A stretch of DNA of 10,413 bases from Chlamydiota bacterium (lineage in GTDB: Bacteria > Chlamydiota > Chlamydiia > Chlamydiales > SM23-39), in assembly GCA_048498835.1 (NCBI GenBank), contig JBEHXF010000060.1:1-10413 (forward strand), read 5' to 3'. This document shows, in pieces, positions 1,391 through 10,413 of this stretch. A program made the translations under genes and the position numbers. Below the pieces are notes generated by a model that was not told where the DNA came from, ran no database searches, and saw only the letters and a program-made list of their open reading frames with translations. Numbering within the stretch: the first letter of the stretch is position 1; each line of letters begins with the position of its first letter.

Positions 1391-2206
1391 ATGAATGTTT
1401 TTCTCTCTTTCATACTCTTTTGCTTTTGCGGATTGTCTCTCTACTCGCAGCTGCCCCTATTTTATTGGGATGCAAGGCCAAGCCTCGGATTTGAAAACTT
1501 CGGTGACGCGCTTTCCGAAGCGCTTGTTGAAAGGATGGTTGGAGCAAAAGTTTCGATTGCGAATCAACCCTTTTCAGGCGAGCAAAAGCTATTGGGAATG
1601 GGTTCGATTCTGAACTATGCCCAAACAGGCGATCTCATTTGGGGAACAGGCGTGAATGGGAAAGCTAAGTCGTATCGATTTGAGTCTCTTGATGTTCGAG
1701 CTGTACGGGGTCCTTTAACCAGAGAATTTCTGTTGAGTAGAGGAATTGCTTGCCCCGAAGTTTATGGGGATCCCACTCTATTGTTACCGATTTATTTTCC
1801 CGAATTTATCAAACCTGAGTCGCCCTCTCAGGACTTTATCATCATTCCTCACTATTCCGATGAATCGTTATTTTCTCATTTATCAAACGTCGTCAGCGTG
1901 AAAGAACATTGGAGCGTAGTGATTGAGAAGATTCTCTCGAGCCGATTCGTTATTTCTAGCTCTCTTTCTGGAATTATCGTAGCTGAAGCTTTTGGAATTC
2001 CCGCCCGATTATTGCAGATAGAAAATAAGACCAATACAGAAGATCTGTTCAAGTATAGGGACTATTATCTGGGAACCAATCGAGCCAACTTTTCCTATGC
2101 GACTTCAATTGAAGAAGCTCTTGAGATGGGTGGCGAACCACTGCCAACTTGCGATTTAGACAAATTAATCGGCGCTTTTCCGTTCGAAATTTACAGATCG
2201 CGTTGA
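1391..2206 (+). CDS. Polysaccharide pyruvyltransferase family protein (ExoV/GumL-like)
   Basis: Motifs NFGD, GSIL, WGTG, AVRGPLT, YGDP, IIPHY, SSSLxG..AEAFGIP and FKYRDYY. Hydrophobic N-terminus. Starts 3 nt after the P4H stop. Confidence 0.88.
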   Translation: MNVFLSFILFCFCGLSLYSQLPLFYWDARPSLGFENFGDALSEALVERMVGAKVSIANQPFSGEQKLLGMGSILNYAQTGDLIWGTGVNGKAKSYRFESLDVRAVRGPLTREFLLSRGIACPEVYGDPTLLLPIYFPEFIKPESPSQDFIIIPHYSDESLFSHLSNVVSVKEHWSVVIEKILSSRFVISSSLSGIIVAEAFGIPARLLQIENKTNTEDLFKYRDYYLGTNRANFSYATSIEEALEMGGEPLPTCDLDKLIGAFPFEIYRSR

Positions 2207-2640
2207 GAAAAAATTTGCTCACAGTGACGGCAGCGGAGATGAAAGTGTCCGTTGCTCTGTTCCACGGTGAAGTGAGCCGGGAGTCGCTCGCCTCGGGTGA
2301 TGCAGGTGAGATTCGGGCAGAGAAGCAGGCCCTGAATCGAGGAGGGAATCGAAACGGGAAATTTTTGAGAAACTTTGTAATTTTCGATGATATTTACGGT
2401 CGCTTTTGGAGCAAAGACGGCGATCTGCGAAGCTAAAACAGCTGTCAGATGTAGATCTTCTACTTTGATGATATCTTTCAGCCCCATCGAATCACTTTTA
2501 AGATTGAGTCCGATTGTCACCTGCCGTTCTTCTTCGTTAAGCCGCAATAGACGGACGATTTTCAGGGCTTGGCCTGCTGTAATGTGATCGATCACCGTGC
2601 CCGTTTTAATGGCAGAAACCGAGAGAGTTTTTTGTTTCAT
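2191..2640 (-). CDS. pyrI: Aspartate carbamoyltransferase regulatory chain
   Basis: LSVSAIKTGTVIDHI, KDIIKVE, APKATVNII and the Zn-binding CPNxxC...CxxCE. ATGA overlap with the pyrB stop. Confidence 0.97.
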   Translation of the reverse strand: MKQKTLSVSAIKTGTVIDHITAGQALKIVRLLRLNEEERQVTIGLNLKSDSMGLKDIIKVEDLHLTAVLASQIAVFAPKATVNIIENYKVSQKFPVSIPSSIQGLLLCPNLTCITRGERLPAHFTVEQSNGHFHLRCRHCEQIFSQRDL

Positions 2641-3533
2641 TTTCCCTCTAAAAGGTGAGCGAGTACAGCCATCCGAACGGCCAGGCCATTTGCCGCTTGT
2701 TGAAAATAGTAGGCATGAGAGGTGTGATCAATTTCCGTTTCGATTTCATCGAGGCGAGGCAAGGGATGAAGAATGCGCAAATTCGATTTGGCTTTTGTCA
2801 GATGCCGTTTTTCCAAACGACAAAAATGAGTTGGGGATTCGGTCGAAGAAAAGCGCTCTTTTTGAATCCGGGTCATGTAGAGAATATCAGTTTTGGGCAA
2901 AACTTCTTCCAAAGAGCTGTGGAAGGAGAATTTGACCCCTTTTTTTCTCAATTCATGAGCGATGGAGTCGGGGAGCTGAAGCGGTTCAGGGGAGACAAAG
3001 AAGAGGCGGACGGCGTAATGGGCAAGTGCTTGCGTAAGCGAATGGACGGTGCGCCCATATTTGAGATCTCCAGCTATAGTAATGGCCAGATCGTCGATTT
3101 TTCCTTGCGTTTGCCGAATGGTGTAGAGATCGAGGAGTGTTTGGGTAGGATGTTGATTGGCTCCATCGCCTGCATTGATCACCGGTTTATCGGTCGCCTC
3201 TGCAGCAACCCGCGCCGCTCCTTCTTGCGGATGGCGGATCACGAGGAGATCGGCGTAGGCTCCAATCACTTTCATCGAATCATGCAGCGATTCACCTTTT
3301 TTTGCCGACGTGGTGGCGCTGTCAGAAAATCCAATGACCTGACCGCCGAGTCGCAGCATCGCCGATTCAAAGGAAAGGCGAGTTCGAGTCGATGGCTCAA
3401 AAAAACAGCTCGCTAGAATCTTCCCCTTGCAAAGATCCGATCCCTTTTTCGAAGGCATAGCCTCTGCGAGTTTCAAAAGATATTCAATCTCTTCTTTGGT
3501 GAGATCGGAAATGGAGATGAGATCTTGTTTCAT
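2637..3533 (-). CDS. pyrB: Aspartate carbamoyltransferase catalytic chain
   Basis: FFEPSTRTRLSFE, KKGESL, INAGDGANQHPTQTLLD, GDLKYGRTVHS, YMTRIQKER and HPLPR. The ATG at 3533-3531 is preferred over the TTG at 3536 because it forms a TGATG overlap with the GT9 stop. Confidence 0.98.
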   Translation of the reverse strand: MKQDLISISDLTKEEIEYLLKLAEAMPSKKGSDLCKGKILASCFFEPSTRTRLSFESAMLRLGGQVIGFSDSATTSAKKGESLHDSMKVIGAYADLLVIRHPQEGAARVAAEATDKPVINAGDGANQHPTQTLLDLYTIRQTQGKIDDLAITIAGDLKYGRTVHSLTQALAHYAVRLFFVSPEPLQLPDSIAHELRKKGVKFSFHSSLEEVLPKTDILYMTRIQKERFSSTESPTHFCRLEKRHLTKAKSNLRILHPLPRLDEIETEIDHTSHAYYFQQAANGLAVRMAVLAHLLEGK

Positions 3534-4549
3534 CAAATAATATTTAACATGTTTCGCGCTCTGTTGACAACTTCTTCCGGTCCAATTTGCAGAAGACAGA
3601 ACGGACGTTCACACTTTCGCTTGAGGCACGGCTGACAAGTGGGTGGTTTTGCAATCGCTAGAGCGCGGGGAGCGAGGTGTGGGCCGCAGAGCTTTGGATC
3701 TGTCGCAGAATAAAGAGCGATTACCGGGACGTTTAGAGCGCAAGCGAGATGGACGGGGCCTGTATCGTTGCTGATGAGAAGATCGATTTGATTTAACAGC
3801 GCTGCAAAGGATCGAAGAGGCAAACTTGCATCGGCAAGAGTGGCTCCTGGAATGAGCTTGGCAACAGCAGCCATTACCTCTTGCTCATCTTTTGTTCCGG
3901 TGATCAGAATCTTACAGCCTAAATTCTGCAACATTCGACCGACGCTGGCAAAATGCTCGACAGGCCACCTCTTAAAGCCATCTTTCGAGCCAGGATGGAG
4001 AGCGATCCAACGTCCTTCCGGAAGGGGAGGGATCTGTTCTGTTGAAAAAAAGGAAAGAGTTTCTGTGTGTCGTTTACCGCCGACCGCTTCCACCATTTCG
4101 AGTCTACGGACAATTTCGTGACTTTTGCTGTTATTCAAAGGGTGAGTTAGGAGTGCATCGAGCCCTTTATTGATGCCCACTGTTCCGACGAGGCGAGAAG
4201 CGCCAATGACCGAACAGAGGGGGAGGATCCATCGCTGAGAAGCATGTAAAACTAGAACGGTATCGATTTGCTCCGCTCGCAATCTTTTCCATAACATCCA
4301 AGGTTTTGCCAGCAGGAGGGTTTTGTTGACCCACGGATTCTTGCGAAGCGCTTGTTCTCCGATGGGGCTTGTGAGGAGAACAATGTGTGCCTCAGGGAAA
4401 GAAAGTCGGAGCGACTGCAGTGCAGGGGTAGCCCAGAGGGAATCTCCCAGCGCCGTTGTCGCTACGACAAGAAAGCGGTGTTGAAGCGGATGTTTGGGAA
4501 GAAGCCACCGTAGAAAAAGAGAGAAAAAGAGAAGAATTTTATTTTTCAT
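3533..4549 (-). CDS. Glycosyltransferase family 9 (ADP-heptose:LPS heptosyltransferase-like)
   Basis: TALGDSLWATPALQSLR, HPGSKDGFKRWP, ISNDTGPVHLACALNVPVIALY and a C-terminal CQPCLKRKC..FCL Cys cluster, all typical of GT9/WaaF-like enzymes. Confidence 0.92.
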   Translation of the reverse strand: MKNKILLFFSLFLRWLLPKHPLQHRFLVVATTALGDSLWATPALQSLRLSFPEAHIVLLTSPIGEQALRKNPWVNKTLLLAKPWMLWKRLRAEQIDTVLVLHASQRWILPLCSVIGASRLVGTVGINKGLDALLTHPLNNSKSHEIVRRLEMVEAVGGKRHTETLSFFSTEQIPPLPEGRWIALHPGSKDGFKRWPVEHFASVGRMLQNLGCKILITGTKDEQEVMAAVAKLIPGATLADASLPLRSFAALLNQIDLLISNDTGPVHLACALNVPVIALYSATDPKLCGPHLAPRALAIAKPPTCQPCLKRKCERPFCLLQIGPEEVVNRARNMLNII

Positions 4550-7500
4550 AGAGCGGCAAAATCGGGAGTTGGTCGGTATTGAGTTCAGCTAAGCATTGTA
4601 AAAAGACGACAGCAAGCTGGGCATTGGTGATCAAGGGAATGTGATGATCGATCGCGAGGCGCCGAATTTTAAATCCCTCGCTATTGGGTTGTGTTCCGCT
4701 GCTTGGAATATTGAGAATCAGATCGATTTTTTGCTGCGCAATCAAAGTGGCGATATTCGGCTCATATTTTTCGCCAACTTTATAGACTGAAACCGAGCCG
4801 ATGCCCCGCTTGGCTAAATAATCGTGGGTCCCTTCGGTCGCGGAGAGATCCCACCCTTGCTCTTCAAGCGCTTTGAGCGCGGGGAGGAGTTTCATCCGGA
4901 AATCGGCGCTCACGCTGACGAGGAGGCGCTTGCCCCGTACTGCTTGTTCGGTGGAGAGCCAGGAAGCGAAAAACGATTCGAGGTAATGTTCACTGACATT
5001 GGCCACTTCGCCCGTTGAGGCCATTTCAACGCCGGTGACCGGATCTGATCCTTTCAATCGTCTGTAGGAAAAGAGAGGCGCTTTAACCCCGACATAATCG
5101 AGTTCCAATGTTTCATAGCTCTTCGGCTGATACACACCTAAAATGACTTCTGTCGCAAGCTCAATGAAATTGACCTTGGTCACCTTGGAGACAAACGGCA
5201 AGGAACGAGAGGCTCGCACATTGCATTCGATCACTTGAATCGCGTTATCTTTGGCGATGAACTGGATATTGAAGGGGCCGGAGATTTGTAGAGCTGCAGC
5301 GATCTCTCGTGCTGTTTTTTTGGCTCGTCGAATGGTTTCGAGATAGAGTCTTTGTGGCGGAAGGACGATGGTCGCATCGCCTGAATGGACGCCTGCGTTT
5401 TCTACGTGTTCAGCAATCGCCATCACAACCACTTCGCCCTGGCTTGCGACTCCATCGATCTCGAGCTCTTTGGCGTTTTCAATAAATTTAGAAAGGACGA
5501 TTGGATGATCGGGAGAGACAATAGCCGCTTCTTTTAAGTAGCGGTCGAGCTCTTCTTCACTGGTCACGACATTCATCGCAGCGCCAGAAAGAACGTAGCT
5601 CGGGCGGATCAAGAGGGGATAACCCACCTCTAGACCGAACTCTTTTGCCTTTTTTAGACTGGTGACCCGTTGCCAGGGAGGCTGATCGATATTAAGCTGG
5701 TGTAAAAGCGTCGAAAATAAATCGCGGTTTTCAGCGCGATCGATCATCACAGCGGGCGTTCCTAAAATCGGATAGCCCTTTTCATGCAGGGGAAGCGCTA
5801 GGTTATTCGCAATCTGCCCGCCGACCGAAACCACTAAACCACGCGGCCGCTCAAAATCGGCGATGTCACAGACCCGTTCAAAGGTGAGTTCTTCAAAATA
5901 GAGCCGGTCTGATTCATCGAAATCGGTGGAGACTGTTTCAGGATTGGAATTGATTAAAATGGTGGGTACGGCATGCTTGCTCAACGTGCGCGCTGTATTG
6001 ACAGCGGACCAGTCGAATTCGACCGATGAGCCAATTCGGTAAGGGCCAGAGCCTAAAACGATCACCCCTTTTTTCTTCGACGGTTCCACATCGTGCGCCT
6101 GAGCCCAATAGGTCGTGTAGAGATAGTTCGTTTCGGCATCGAATTCGCCGGCGAGCGTATCGATTTGCTTGATGAAGGGGGTGATTTTTAACTTTTTGCG
6201 CTCACTTCGAACTTCTTCTTCGCTTAAGTTCTGCAGCCGTCCAATCGCCGCATCGGAAAAACCGCGCCGCTTGGCTGCGAGAAGCCACTCTTTTTTTAAC
6301 GGCGCCCGCTTAAAGTCTTGCTCAAAGGTCCATAGATCGTAGAGTTGCTGTAAAAACCAGCGATCGATTTGTGACCAATCGTGAGCTTGTTCTACATCAC
6401 CGCCCGATTTGAAATATTGATAGAGGGCAAATAAACGCCGATCGGTCGGCTTTTGGATATCGAGATACGGCGCATCGATTTTCTCCGGCGGGTCATTGAT
6501 CCCATCTGAGCCGAGATTGAGCATCCGAATCCCTTTTTGAAGCGCCTCAGGAAACGTGCGACCGATCGCCATCACTTCGCCGACGCTCTTCATTTCGGTG
6601 CCGATGACCCGCTCAGCTGATTTTAGCTTTTGGATGTCCCAGCGGGGGATTTTCACGACGATGTAATCGAGGGCTGGCTCAAAAAAAGCGCTGGTTTTTT
6701 TTGTGATCGCATTTGCCACTTCATCCAGGCTGTAGCCCAGGGCGAGCTTAGCTGCGACAAACGCCAGCGGATAACCCGTTGCCTTTGATGCAAGCGCGCT
6801 CGAGCGAGACAGTCTCGCATTCATCTCGATCACCCGATAATCGCTCGTCTTTGGATCGAGAGCAAATTGGACATTGCATTCGCCGACGATGCCGAAATGG
6901 CGGGCCGCTTTGATGGCCACTGTCCGCAATAAATGGTATTCGTGATTGGAAAGTGTCTGAGAGGGAGCTACGACGATGCTCTCACCTGTGTGAATGCCCA
7001 TCGGGTCGAAGTTTTCCATATTGCAAATCGTAAGTGCCTGATCTTTGCAGTCGCGGACGATTTCATATTCGAGCTCTTTCCATCCCTTCAAATACTCTTC
7101 AATGAGGATCTGTGGCGCCCCTGTCAGAGCTTCTCTTGCTCGCTCTTTCAGTTCGGCTTCCGACTCCATTTTTCCTGAGCCAAGACCGCCCAATGAAAAC
7201 CCCGAGCGCATCATCACTGGATAGCCGATTTCTCGAGCTGCGTTTAATGCTTCTTCTACAGTTGTGGCAGCGAAACTTTTAGGTGTCCGAATGCCGATTT
7301 CTTCTAAATTCTTTTTAAAAAGATCTCGGTCCTCAGTTAAACGGATCGCTTCGACAGGCGTACCCAATACTTGCATCTGATATTTTTTTAAGATGCCCCG
7401 TTTTTCTAGCTCTAACCCTAAGTTTAGAGCTGTTTGCCCACCAAAACTGAGTAATAAAGAACCTGGTCTTTCCGCTTCGATGATCCGCTCGACTGTCTCG

Positions 7501-7697
7501 ACATTCAGCGGCTGCAAATAGACTCGATCGGCCATGTCCCGATCGGTCTGGACGGTGGCGATATTTGGATTGACGAGGATCGTTCTAAGTCCCTCCTCTT
7601 TCAGCGCTTTAATCGCTTGCGAGCCAGAATAATCGAATTCACCCGCTTGCCCAATTCTCAAGCCGCCGGAACCCAAAATTAAGACGCTCTTTTTCAT
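4539..7697 (-). CDS. carB: Carbamoyl-phosphate synthase large chain
   Basis: 1052 aa with IGQAGEFDYSG, NMENFDPMGIHTGES, EMNARLSRSSALASKATGYP, MKSVGEVM, NSNPETVSTD, RPSYVLSG, AGVHSGDA, EMASTGEV and a C-terminal MGS-like domain. Confidence 0.99.
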   Translation of the reverse strand: MKKSVLILGSGGLRIGQAGEFDYSGSQAIKALKEEGLRTILVNPNIATVQTDRDMADRVYLQPLNVETVERIIEAERPGSLLLSFGGQTALNLGLELEKRGILKKYQMQVLGTPVEAIRLTEDRDLFKKNLEEIGIRTPKSFAATTVEEALNAAREIGYPVMMRSGFSLGGLGSGKMESEAELKERAREALTGAPQILIEEYLKGWKELEYEIVRDCKDQALTICNMENFDPMGIHTGESIVVAPSQTLSNHEYHLLRTVAIKAARHFGIVGECNVQFALDPKTSDYRVIEMNARLSRSSALASKATGYPLAFVAAKLALGYSLDEVANAITKKTSAFFEPALDYIVVKIPRWDIQKLKSAERVIGTEMKSVGEVMAIGRTFPEALQKGIRMLNLGSDGINDPPEKIDAPYLDIQKPTDRRLFALYQYFKSGGDVEQAHDWSQIDRWFLQQLYDLWTFEQDFKRAPLKKEWLLAAKRRGFSDAAIGRLQNLSEEEVRSERKKLKITPFIKQIDTLAGEFDAETNYLYTTYWAQAHDVEPSKKKGVIVLGSGPYRIGSSVEFDWSAVNTARTLSKHAVPTILINSNPETVSTDFDESDRLYFEELTFERVCDIADFERPRGLVVSVGGQIANNLALPLHEKGYPILGTPAVMIDRAENRDLFSTLLHQLNIDQPPWQRVTSLKKAKEFGLEVGYPLLIRPSYVLSGAAMNVVTSEEELDRYLKEAAIVSPDHPIVLSKFIENAKELEIDGVASQGEVVVMAIAEHVENAGVHSGDATIVLPPQRLYLETIRRAKKTAREIAAALQISGPFNIQFIAKDNAIQVIECNVRASRSLPFVSKVTKVNFIELATEVILGVYQPKSYETLELDYVGVKAPLFSYRRLKGSDPVTGVEMASTGEVANVSEHYLESFFASWLSTEQAVRGKRLLVSVSADFRMKLLPALKALEEQGWDLSATEGTHDYLAKRGIGSVSVYKVGEKYEPNIATLIAQQKIDLILNIPSSGTQPNSEGFKIRRLAIDHHIPLITNAQLAVVFLQCLAELNTDQLPILPLYEK

Positions 7698-8743
7698 AAC
7701 ATCTCGTAGAAGTGATCGAACAGATAATCTGCATCGGTTGGGCCGGGATTTGCTTCCGGGTGAAACTGCACAGCAAAGAAAGGGGCTCTTTTATGCTTAA
7801 TTCCTTCCACCGACTGATCGTTTAAACTTCGAAAGAGTACTTTCCAATCGCGAGGCAAGCTCTTCTCATCGATCGCATAGCCGTGGTTTTGAGAAGTGAG
7901 GACACATTTTCTCGCATCGAGATCCATGCACGGATGATTTTGTCCCCGATGACCGAACTTTAGCTTATACGTTTTCGCTCCGATCGCCAGAGCCATGATC
8001 TGCGCGCCTAAACAAATGCCAAACGTCGGCTTTTTCAATTTCAATGCTTTTTGCAGCACCGCAATGGTCTTCTTGCACACCATCGGATCGCCCGGGCCAT
8101 TCGACAAAAACAATCCGTCGAATTCTTCACCCGTATAATCATAATCATACGGCACCCTAACCACTTCGATCGGATATCTACCCAGACAGCGCAAGATGTT
8201 TTGCTTCATCCCGCAGTCGACCGCCACAACCCGCTTTTTCCCATGCCCAAAAACTTCTCGCGCCGGATTGCTCACCATCGACACTAAATCGCTCTGATTT
8301 GGATCGACGAACTTTCTCGGTTTCGCATCGCCCATCACAATCGCACCCAGCGCAACGCCACTTTTTCTGAGCCGCTTGGTCAATTCCCGTGTGTCCACTC
8401 CCGTAATCAACGGAGTTCTCTGCTCCTCCAACCACCGTACAAAAGAACACTCTGAGTCCCAGTGGCTCGCCACTTCGCTCACGTGACCCGTCACCACGCC
8501 CGCCGCCTGCACCTTCTCCGACTCCCAAGTCGTGCGACTTGGCACGCCATAATTGCCCACCAGCGGATAGGTAAAGGTCAAGATTTGGCCAGCATAAGAA
8601 GGATCGGTCAGCGACTCGACATAGCCGGTCATCCCCGTTGTGAACACCGCTTCGCCAAAATAGACACCCTCTTGCCACTCTGGTGAAAACCCAGAGAAGA
8701 CTTCTCCACTAGACAAAATCAATTTCGAAGGAACAAGCATCAT
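7694..8743 (-). CDS. carA: Carbamoyl-phosphate synthase small chain (glutaminase)
   Basis: GEAVFTTGMTGY..LTDPSY, SNGPGDP, GICLG (catalytic Cys), SQNHGY and QFHPE (His-Glu). ATGA overlap with the carB start. Confidence 0.98.
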   Translation of the reverse strand: MMLVPSKLILSSGEVFSGFSPEWQEGVYFGEAVFTTGMTGYVESLTDPSYAGQILTFTYPLVGNYGVPSRTTWESEKVQAAGVVTGHVSEVASHWDSECSFVRWLEEQRTPLITGVDTRELTKRLRKSGVALGAIVMGDAKPRKFVDPNQSDLVSMVSNPAREVFGHGKKRVVAVDCGMKQNILRCLGRYPIEVVRVPYDYDYTGEEFDGLFLSNGPGDPMVCKKTIAVLQKALKLKKPTFGICLGAQIMALAIGAKTYKLKFGHRGQNHPCMDLDARKCVLTSQNHGYAIDEKSLPRDWKVLFRSLNDQSVEGIKHKRAPFFAVQFHPEANPGPTDADYLFDHFYEML

Positions 8744-8757
8744 GGCAAATTCACGGC

Positions 8758-8786
8758 AGCATATCTCAACAAATCAATTTATGCAA
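8758..8786 (-). promoter_or_regulatory. Candidate sigma70/sigma66-type promoter for the carA operon
   Basis: On the - strand: TTGCAT (8786-8781), exactly 17 nt, TATGCT (8763-8758), then 14 nt to the carA ATG. It lies just outside the left inverted-repeat arm. Confidence 0.45.
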
Positions 8787-8801
8787 ATCGCGAAGAACTT
8801 C

Positions 8802-8882
8802 ACCGCAGAGAATGTGAGTTAGAGAGAAAAATTCACCACAGAGATAGGCCACCACAGAGGCGGGGAAGCCCCGCACCCCAAA
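8802..8882 (+). repeat. Left inverted-repeat arm of the GxxExxY cassette
   Basis: Contains ACCGCAGAGAAT (8802-8813), ACCACAGAGATA (8835-8846) and ACCACAGAGGCGGGGAAGCCCCGCACCCCAAA (8851-8882). Each block has a reverse-complement partner in 9277-9351. Internal hairpin GCGGGG-AAG-CCCCGC at 8860-8874. Confidence 0.93.
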
Positions 8883-8886
8883 AGAA

Positions 8887-9267
8887 TTAGACCTTTATAC
8901 GATGGATTCCTTCTTTCAATATTTTAACATTTAAATTGATTAGAAGGCCGATCTTACAACTTGAAAGTTTCAAATAGGAAAGTAATTGAGCTTCATGAAT
9001 TGGCAATAGCGAGCTGACAGACTTGATCTAAACGATAACTTGATTTTCTATAATCAAGTCTATTCGATATCCGCAATCTAGAATTTTGTTTTTGTAGGAA
9101 ATTGATAAAGGTTTCTGTTGTTCAAATTTCAGACCTTTTAATTCTAGTTCGTATGTCAGACAAGTTTCATAGACAGATTCTAATAATCCGGGGCCTAAAG
9201 CTCGGTGGACTTCAATCGCTGCGCCAATGATTTCACTTGTCAGGGAATCTCTTTGTACTTCAATCAT
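8887..9267 (-). pseudogene. GxxExxY family protein (PD-(D/E)xK nuclease-like) with one in-frame TAG at codon 80
   Basis: IIGAAIEVHRALGPGLLESVYE (GxxExxY) and YRIDLII. After the TAG at 9030-9028 the same frame continues IKSVSSLLPIHEAQLLSYLKLSSCKIGLLINLNVKILKEGIHRIKV to TAA at 8889-8887, which is the typical family C-terminus. Full length is 126 codons plus stop. Confidence 0.9.
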
Positions 9268-9276
9268 TTTTTTCTC

Positions 9277-9351
9277 TTTGGGGTGCGGGGCTTCCCCGCC
9301 TCTGTGGTAGTTTATCTCTGTGGTAAATTTTTTTTCTTTATTCTCTGCGGT
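9277..9351 (-). repeat. Right inverted-repeat arm of the GxxExxY cassette
   Basis: 9277-9308 is the exact reverse complement of 8851-8882 (32 bp). TATCTCTGTGGT (9313-9324) and ATTCTCTGCGGT (9340-9351) pair with the outer left blocks. Hairpin at 9285-9299. Confidence 0.93.
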
Positions 9352-9359
9352 AACATGTT

Positions 9360-10244
9360 TTAGGGAGCGCGGCAGCAGAAGGAGACGGCAGGGTTGCGCA
9401 CGAGCATGGAGGTGGTGGTGAGGGGATGGGACTGGGTGATGGTCGCGAGAGCGGAGAGCCAGTGTGGTTCGAGATTGAGCGCGGGACAGCGATAGGCGTT
9501 GAGTCCATAGGAGCGAAGGGGTGGGAGGTAGAGATGCTCGATTTCATAGAGCGTTTCAATGTGGTCGGAGGTGAAGGAGAGGGGAATGACGACGATGTTC
9601 GGGCGGGACCAGGAGGGGTTATCGCAAAGTTCATTGGTGTAGGGACGGAGCCATTCACCGCGGCCGAACTTAGATTGGTAGGAGAGTTGAGTGGCGGCGA
9701 GGGGAAAAGCGGCGCGGATAAGGTGATAGGAGGCTTCGCATTCCGATTCGTAAGGGTCGCCTTTGCAGGAGAAAGATTGAGGAAGGCCATGAGCGGAGAA
9801 GAGGAGTGTCGTTTGGGATTCGGGAAGGTTGTGAGCGGTGAGGAAGTGGCGGATGTGGTGTTGGAAGGCCGCGATGTAGGCTGGGTGGGTTGCGTAGGAG
9901 TGGATCCAACGGAGTTTGAGGAGTGTGCGGCAAGAGAGGTGTGTGGCGAGGAAGCGGGCGATGCTGCCTGTCGTGGCGTAGGAGAATTGGGGAAAGAGCG
10001 GGAGAACTCGGATGATGGAGGCGGGACAGGCTTCGAGGCGAGCGAGTGAGTCGGCGTGAGTGGCGGGGAGATAGCGGTGAAAGGTGAGTGCGTTGAGGTG
10101 AGAGGCTAGGGCTTCTGTATCGAAATAGATGGGTGAGCGGCCGCCGATGAGCTGATAGTCTTCGGCTAGAGTGAGCGCTCGTTTGCGAGCGATGCGGCCA
10201 AAGAGCCAATTGTGAAGAGGCGTGGGTAGACGGGTTCGGACGAC
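9360..10244 (-). CDS. hemH: Ferrochelatase, 5'-truncated at a junction (absent from the ORF track)
   Basis: Hand translation gives one uninterrupted frame: VVRTRLPTPLHNWLFGRIARKR...GGRSPIYFDTE...FHRYLP...PLFPQFSYATTGS...LLFSAHGLP...GDPYESEC...YQSKFGRGEWLRP...IPLSFTSDHIETLYEIE...FCCRAP, with TAA at 9362-9360. SPIYFDTE and FHRYLP resemble chlamydial HemH. The N-terminal NxGGP motif is missing. Confidence 0.93.
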   Translation of the reverse strand, partial: VVRTRLPTPLHNWLFGRIARKRALTLAEDYQLIGGRSPIYFDTEALASHLNALTFHRYLPATHADSLARLEACPASIIRVLPLFPQFSYATTGSIARFLATHLSCRTLLKLRWIHSYATHPAYIAAFQHHIRHFLTAHNLPESQTTLLFSAHGLPQSFSCKGDPYESECEASYHLIRAAFPLAATQLSYQSKFGRGEWLRPYTNELCDNPSWSRPNIVVIPLSFTSDHIETLYEIEHLYLPPLRSYGLNAYRCPALNLEPHWLSALATITQSHPLTTTSMLVRNPAVSFCCRAP

Positions 10245-10247
10245 TCT

Positions 10248-10413
10248 TTGGTGGATAAGCCGTTTGACGAGCCGGGGTGGTTGTATGAAATCAAATGGGA
10301 CGGCTATCGGGCGATCGCATTGTGCGACAGGAAGGAGCTGAATATTATTTCGCGCAACAATAAATCGTTCAACGAAAAATTTTACCCTGTTTACCAGGCG
10401 GTGAAGGAGTGGG
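10248..10413 (+). CDS. ligD: Internal fragment of an ATP-dependent DNA ligase (LigD-type ligase domain)
   Basis: Reads LVDKPFDEPGWLYEIKWDGYRAIALCDRKELNIISRNNKSFNEKFYPVYQAVKEW, including nucleotidyltransferase motif I KxDG (Lys at 10293-10295) and SRN. The expected preceding PMLAT is absent, and the frame runs off the window end. Confidence 0.85.
   Translation, partial: MVDKPFDEPGWLYEIKWDGYRAIALCDRKELNIISRNNKSFNEKFYPVYQAVKEW

Follow-up and report, generated by a model that had tools for sequence, protein, structure and literature searches.

An inactivated GxxExxY gene between inverted heptamer arms in a chlamydial genome, and evidence for a nuclease–repeat pairing across its family

Genes of the small GxxExxY family (TIGR04256/PF13366) often lie between two inverted arms made of tandem heptamers of the type CRCNRAG, and related arms occur as gene-less copies elsewhere. 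The window, by which we mean the whole 10,413-nt stretch of Chlamydiota DNA analyzed here, contains one inactivated copy of such a nuclease-plus-cognate-repeat system. That the GxxExxY protein recognizes the repeat unit in some form is in our judgment very likely. The reading we prefer goes further: the nuclease recognizes its own arms and drives their spread, while the gene is an occasional passenger. We give this reading a probability slightly above one half (about 0.55).

An earlier note, made from the letters of the window alone, had described an A+T-rich, nuclease-like open reading frame between two structured inverted repeats, and its account of the local architecture proved accurate (Table 1). 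With gaps allowed, the arms pair over their full length with an 84% match, and 8827–8882 and 9277–9332 are 93% complementary across 56 nt. Besides the perfect core and three ACCRCAGAG units, each arm contains a GCGGGG-AAG-CCCCGC hairpin that folds with −7.3 kcal/mol as DNA. The downstream arm continues from its units through the spacer variant AGGCCAC to the hairpin and then to CACCCCAAA, and the upstream arm carries the spacer variant AAACTAC. As read from the sequence, CAGAG precedes the hairpin and ACCCCAAA follows it. Between the core and the gene lie 4 nt on the side of the stop codon and 9 nt on the side of the ATG, and the stop codon of hemH lies 8 nt outside the upstream arm. The counts of G+C given for positions 9061–9120 (18/60) and 9421–9480 (37/60) were correct, and the reading frame as a whole has 34% G+C compared with 46% for the genome. 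The translated frame matches TIGR04256 with 152.5 bits (cut-off 35) and PF13366 with 145.5 bits (cut-off 22), and contains the name-giving motif as GLLESVY. Folding of a 566-nt transcript predicts the single long stem that the note had envisaged (z = −12.5; none of 100 shuffled sequences was as stable).

Table 1. Positions of the main features in the window
Feature	Position	Strand	Remark
Downstream arm (relative to the gene)	8802–8886	+	ACCRCAGAG units at 8802, 8835 and 8851
Perfect 32-bp core	8851–8882	+	Complementary to 9277–9308; extends no further
Hairpin of downstream arm	8860–8874		GCGGGG-AAG-CCCCGC
GxxExxY gene	8887–9267	−	126 codons; broken by in-frame TAG
In-frame TAG, codon 80	9028–9030	−	Position of the conserved Glu in D70..E80xK82
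Codon 10 (Thr, helix 1)	9238–9240	−	Suggestive covariation with base 5 of the CRCNRAG unit
Upstream arm	9272–9351	−	ACCRCAGAG units at 9351, 9324 and 9308
Hairpin of upstream arm	9299–9285		GCGGGG-AAG-CCCCGC
hemH (ferrochelatase), 3′ part	9360–10100	−	Upstream co-directional neighbor
carA	7694–8743	−	Downstream neighbor of the GxxExxY gene

The cassette is sited between hemH and carA, not in an rRNA gene. The candidate carA promoter that the note had proposed was not recovered: a consensus scan of 8700–9450 returned one site, inside the reading frame, with 1.5 expected by chance. A promoter and terminator scan stayed at chance level, and Rfam gave two chance-level matches, none near its gathering score. 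There is no DDE gene within the arms and no cas gene in the window. Following carA are carB, a glycosyltransferase, pyrB and pyrI, all four named from their translations; the run from carA to pyrI spans 2191–8743 on the minus strand. The enzyme encoded within this pyrimidine synthesis operon resembles family-9 LPS glycosyltransferases (3533–4549, under curated cut-offs), and carA itself was matched in just 22 of the 41 genomes searched. On the plus strand, 725–2206 encodes a secreted-type 2OG-Fe(II) oxygenase (PF13640) followed by a polysaccharide pyruvyl transferase (PF04230). At the contig end, an open frame at 10248–10413 (+) looks like the beginning of a LigD-type, ATP-dependent DNA ligase domain; it opposes the strand of the long hemH frame and may be left over from a gene or result from an assembly join.

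The GxxExxY copy in the window is broken. Its in-frame TAG replaces the Glu of the D..ExK motif, a residue kept by 118 of 120 aligned homologues, and the PD-(D/E)xK catalytic site is not intact. We considered recoding of TAG and ruled it out, since this codon closes 233 of the 1131 long frames in the same genome. Because TAG is an ordinary stop in this organism, the window copy either is a pseudogene or contains an assembly error.

Most homologues retain the site. Among 120 aligned sequences, D70 is present in 120, E80 in 118, K82 in 117, Q94 in 117 and Y98 in 119; Y33 is found in all 120, and C36, the sole conserved cysteine, in 107. The conserved QLxxY resembles the QxxxY motif of the RecB family. 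We modeled the intact paralogue from contig C4 of the same genome (pLDDT 90.6). The model has a PD-(D/E)xK fold, and enzymes of this type occur throughout its list of structural matches, which also includes tRNA splicing endonucleases. The closest match is Cas4 SSO0001 (4ic1; Z 8.4, rmsd 3.1, 98 aligned residues), tied with BpuSI (Z 8.1); a Z of 8.4 scarcely exceeds the background best of 7–8, which counts against our preferred reading. Searching the PDB by sequence gave 0 matches, and Foldseek matched nothing at E ≤ 0.001. Model and alignment show a minimal PD-(D/E)xK fold with catalytic residues intact in most members of the family. The likeness to Cas4 has limits: GxxExxY proteins have about 125 residues, whereas Cas4 has about 200, and with one conserved cysteine they lack a four-Cys Fe–S site. 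PD-(D/E)xK enzymes hydrolyze DNA and are not known to carry out strand transfer by themselves; this too weighs against the preferred reading.

Inverted arms around homologous genes, which the note had proposed to look for, were found. For each gene we compared the 200 nt upstream with the 200 nt downstream and scored their inverted similarity, with a threshold of at least 30, in loci from many bacterial phyla and two archaea, a sample that the search pattern biases toward close relatives. From 141 loci we removed 10 (four copies from a high-copy genome, two near-duplicates and four partial genes) and another 10 at contig edges. The threshold was reached at 87 of the remaining 121 loci, compared with 6 of 566 geometry-matched control pairs from these loci, and at 46 of 70 loci in a further set (3 of 73 at the edges). 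The 34 loci that stayed below the threshold count against our reading, and so does a chlamydial subgroup that is among the failures of the further set. This subgroup, with the motif GGPGLLE (L276–L286 and L016; L276–L286 come from genomes G208, G123, G187, G096, G109, G104, G116, G146, G089 and G178), has no inverted arms, with scores of 15–22, and is possibly a domesticated form. At 78 of the 121 loci, at least two CRCNRAG units stand on each side and point toward the gene. These units are mostly spaced by 8–10 nt. The arms share the outer end TT(C/A)AC-C, and across many phyla they begin with an identical TT(C/A)ACC; some members of the family have no hairpin. One narrow pattern scan alone gave at least 597 confirmed family matches. 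In-frame stops occur at 7 of the 121 loci, and no neighboring genes are conserved.

Gene and repeat also co-occur across Chlamydiota, where 53 of 200 genomes carry the gene in a patchy distribution. The array pattern ACCRCAGAG-N(1–9)-CRCAGAG is present in at least five copies in 34 of the 53 genomes with the gene compared with 7 of the 147 without, and in at least ten copies in 25 with compared with 2 without; this contrast overstates significance because the genomes are kin and not independent. The reversed pattern was absent from all 201 genomes. Fewer than five copies of the tested pattern in 19 of the 53 gene-bearing genomes, and arrays without a full-length gene in 7 genomes, speak against our reading.

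The genome to which the window belongs (1.97 Mb, 88 contigs, 97% complete) contains further copies of the arm, for which the note had proposed a search. Its place in Chlamydiota agrees with the protein tree, where GxxExxY homologues of its relatives group with named Chlamydiota loci. A profile search returned 48 matches compared with 0 in the shuffled genome. Open reading frames of 150 codons or more make up 84% of the DNA, yet only 2 of the 48 lie inside such frames. As many as 21 are found no more than 500 nt from the end of a contig; 48 is therefore a minimum, and the assembly of some clusters may be faulty. Three GxxExxY genes are present, each with its own type of inverted arm: CACAGAG with the hairpin in the window, CACCGAG on contig C4, and a CAGGAT-rich type on contig C2. 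The window cassette also has a gene-less twin (C8:22939–23056) with the same spacer variants AGGCCAC and AAACTAC arranged alike between unrelated flanks; among 21 counted spacers each variant occurs twice, only in the window arms and in this twin. Elsewhere, BIME-like mosaics string together modules of all three arm types, also in mid-contig, and include tandem arms in the same direction. Mosaics at C12:8796–8960, C53:6560–6760, C58:10435–10730, C62:13–380 and C65:5420–5800 add GTGCCC arrays and TTTTTGCTGCGCAAAAA palindromes to the three GxxExxY arm types. We looked for other candidate movers in this genome and found no RAYT (PF01797), DUF559 or four-helix-bundle gene; the single GIY-YIG match (PF01541) is a 611-residue frame that is probably UvrC. 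As far as these family profiles reach, RAYT, Ssn, DUF559 and four-helix-bundle proteins were rejected as the mover in this genome.

The earlier note had named three findings that would speak against an element: no other copies of the arm, no inverted flanks around homologous genes, and a gene fixed at this locus in relatives. The first two are answered above. As to the third, hemH lies upstream at 6 of the 13 carA loci examined in relatives, and the gene is absent from all 6; in G007 the hemH–carA spacer measures 37 nt. The RAYT/REP-like layout is thereby supported. In G010 (locus L054), a gene-less palindrome of about 190 nt with a related arm type occupies the hemH–carA site of the window cassette, which reflects either shared ancestry with loss of the gene or a second insertion.

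An actively mobile, autonomous element is a different matter, and this reading was not supported. The window copy is catalytically broken, and by eye no target-site duplication was apparent; at hemH–carA, cdd–parC and radA–FAD gene, the spacers of relatives were too divergent to place an insertion junction. The gene is found on 8 of 72,556 plasmid records, 6 of these larger than 400 kb, on none of 50,697 phage records, and at two loci in a low-sensitivity scan of IMG/VR. Upstream of parC in relatives of Pelobium (Sphingobacteriaceae), 14 of 30 loci carry it with a dN/dS of about 0.065, a rough value as dS is near saturation, and here the gene is maintained in place under purifying selection. 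Distances of the gene and of parC do not correlate; dS is saturated, with 17 of 28 pairs usable. The same site is empty in G252 and holds a gene-less palindrome in G229. At L240 and L241, a gene of the 23S-IVS family (PF05635 match for L240) flanked by short AAACAT/AATGTT-type repeats stands where relatives carry the GxxExxY cassette, a hint that small genes bracketed by repeats may form a wider class. At L226 and L227 (cdd–parC), two tandem gene-less palindromes lie beside a gene whose downstream arm is missing, a case of local multiplication close to the gene. Besides the query, 2 of the 21 Bacteroidaceae radA loci that have both neighbors carry the gene, and their units differ.

The sole high-copy genome, G034, has 67 matches. 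Of its full-length copies, 13 were examined and 11 directly follow an IS5-family transposase; the copies share at least part of this transposase, and most end at its terminal repeat. The cassette lies between the transposase and the right end of the element (e.g. L034:1–2761, L039, L042–L050). Dozens of internally deleted cassettes, some in tandem, are scattered in IS5 debris, and L039 has tandem copies of a second clade. The 67 matches were therefore rejected as evidence for autonomous high-copy transposition, since the copies examined hitchhike on the IS5-family element or lie in its debris; near-identical gene copies were found only within this element. Gene-less palindromes are more numerous, with up to 174–182 arm matches in some genomes. 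Those of G204, G131 and G098 have unrelated A+T-rich flanks and no evident duplication. In G154 and G194 several gene-less copies have common flanks, so the palindromes there ride in larger repeats. On these observations, the GxxExxY gene itself moves rarely.

We then compared the repeat unit with the protein. From 194 loci, 111 had enough units and 91 of these had a clear unit class together with Ser or Thr at residue 10. Residue 10 and base 5 of the heptamer combine as Thr/G 62 times, Ser/A 21, Ser/G 7 and Thr/A once, and the pattern persists with the downstream arm alone, which is distant from the codon. Genes with G-type and A-type units have the same G+C content. For the contrast-pair analysis, one duplicate row was taken out of the 91-locus table. 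With about 12 pairs per tree over 31 trees, Thr belonged to the G member in 8.6 pairs and to the A member in 0.07 (median p 0.008), and residue 10 ranked first of 301 residue features, with the next column scoring 4.7. This p value fails correction for 301 features. On well-supported branches alone, the 3 remaining pairs are not significant (p 0.5), the trees being quick IQ-TREE and FastTree reconstructions with few supported forks. The effect is weak in held-out loci, with Thr at 1 of 10 A-type and 5 of 13 G-type loci. Unit types track protein clades across host phyla; the CACGAAG clade, for example, comprises Planctomycetota, Thermodesulfobacteriota, Lentisphaerota and Acidobacteriota. Such clade-level agreement could be explained by plain linkage of gene and arm. 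We regard the covariation as suggestive, a good lead rather than a result. Residue 10 precedes the conserved His of AIEVH by 11 positions on one helix, and at this distance the two probably share the same face. Thr at codon 10 of the window gene agrees with its G-type unit CACAGAG. The suggestion in the note that the protein may recognize, cut or spread its own repeats gains indirect support from this covariation in its first part, recognition.

In the mechanism that we propose, the protein would bind the CRCNRAG unit, and residue 10 on helix 1 would contribute to the reading of base 5. Binding would most likely take place on arms that are single-stranded or have been extruded as a hairpin. 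The protein would then nick close to the outer end TT(C/A)AC-C, which is conserved. The pair of arms would be copied by host repair or recombination, usually without and rarely with the gene, and the copies would land in A+T-rich spacers, often right after a stop codon. The gene would persist mainly by vertical descent, as 1–8 divergent copies per genome. The intact C4 paralogue, which has Thr at residue 10 and a G-type unit, could serve the window arms in trans. A bolder reading takes GxxExxY proteins for a new class of minimal (about 125 residues) element-mobilizing enzymes with a Cas4/RecB-like fold and a helix-1 residue-to-base code for the heptamer, which would themselves excise or insert the arm-bounded unit, possibly by way of the near-invariant Y33 or Y98. 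We hold this to be doubtful; if true, it would account for a whole class of heptamer palindromes scattered through many bacterial phyla and some archaea.

The preferred reading has to be weighed against three others. The protein might be a domesticated host enzyme, a site-specific nuclease for single-stranded DNA that, like SsnA, modulates recombination or incoming DNA, and repeat spread would then be a side effect or have another cause. The conserved gene upstream of parC and the scarcity of the gene on plasmids and phages agree with a host role, as does the effect of SsnA on transformation in Neisseria, which the relevant passage of PMC11893778 describes as a reduction. However, the gene is patchy in Chlamydiota, often present as several divergent paralogues per genome, interrupted by stops at some loci and free of fixed neighbors. 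These features fit a selfish module better than one host role, and we consider the host enzyme unlikely. It is also conceivable that the cassettes are moved as passive cargo. The arms would then serve as operators for autoregulation or as MITE-like ends, and both the cassette and its gene-less copies would be carried by IS transposases. The copies of G034 that follow an IS5-family transposase and share its end agree with this explanation, and in G154 the cassette sits between two IS5-like ends and five gene-less copies have common flanks. The identical TT(C/A)ACC start of arms in many phyla and the conservation of the catalytic residues argue against it, and we find it very improbable.

The third explanation operates on RNA. 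Intervening sequences of 23S rRNA contain a small, A+T-rich four-helix-bundle reading frame (PF05635) that is looped out by a long RNA stem, and the GxxExxY cassette likewise places a small A+T-rich frame within a long stem. Its arms might pair in the transcript, and the stem might be cut out or bypassed, by RNase III or the protein itself, so that the operon remains functional. In accord with this idea, the predicted stem is very stable, the upstream gene is co-directional at 50 of 67 loci with its stop codon within 25 nt of the arm at 30 of these 50, two relatives have a 23S-IVS-family gene with short repeats at the parC-upstream site, and tRNA splicing endonucleases are among the fold matches. 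A stem, however, requires complementarity alone and would leave the conservation of one heptamer across phyla unexplained, along with solo arms, tandem same-direction arms in mosaics and the residue–base covariation; moreover, the downstream gene is opposite at 26 of 71 loci with a call. Unlike the rRNA intervening sequences, the cassette has protein genes as neighbors and codes for a nuclease fold, and its heptamer-array arms disperse on their own. We judge this explanation to be quite improbable.

Under the preferred reading, with a nuclease that drives the spread of its own arms, the closest counterparts are two known systems. The Ssn/NTS–SRM pairs, as portrayed in the sections of PMC11893778 that bear on gene and repeat, combine a small single-domain nuclease gene with a repeat on both sides, many gene-less and mainly intergenic repeat copies, co-occurrence of gene and repeat across genomes, and variant repeats that pair with variant proteins. 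The protein of the window is not a single-domain GIY-YIG protein; the fold is GIY-YIG in Ssn and PD-(D/E)xK in GxxExxY. According to the same sections, SRMs are single hairpins of 20–50 nt (PMC11893778), whereas in GxxExxY cassettes the conserved part consists of heptamers arrayed in tandem within inverted arms, to which some lineages have added the small hairpin. Nuclease activity has been demonstrated for SsnA (PMC11893778, in the part on the enzyme); GxxExxY is known here from sequence and a model. REPtrons and TIRtrons, in the parts of PMC3733652, PMC3116915, PMC8266576 and 10.1101/119735 that treat their organization, resemble GxxExxY in that a low-copy gene, inherited largely vertically, lies between inverted repeats, gene-less doublets are dispersed, a genome may have several gene–repeat pairs, repeat modules form mosaics, and plasmids rarely carry them. 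The window arms likewise recur as intergenic doublets and mosaics. The protein belongs to PF13366 and has a hydrolytic nuclease fold in place of an HUH/Y1 tyrosine transposase, and neither the GTAG nor the CGTC of REPs abuts the hairpin. By analogy, GxxExxY would work like both systems, and its protein family places it outside either.

The entry for PF13366 in PMC3424549 tables the family as of unknown function with multiple transfers, and the description given there does not mention flanking arms. A literature search that covered mainly open-access journals, in their main texts, found no paper on the GxxExxY–repeat pairing. The pairing is real and apparently unpublished; the supplementary gene–repeat tables of PMC11893778 could bear on its novelty. 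New here are the gene-less twin, the IS5 origin of the high-copy case and the residue–base covariation. The window copy is dead and is not the copy to study. The family, a large orphan one, gains a candidate substrate in the CRCNRAG arrays, a candidate specificity residue and a testable target. If the preferred reading is true, GxxExxY would be the third, unrelated fold, after HUH (RAYT) and GIY-YIG (Ssn), to be paired with its own dispersed palindromes. Such a pairing would bear on how dispersed palindromic repeats come to spread, and it might be a source of sequence-specific nucleases of very small size.
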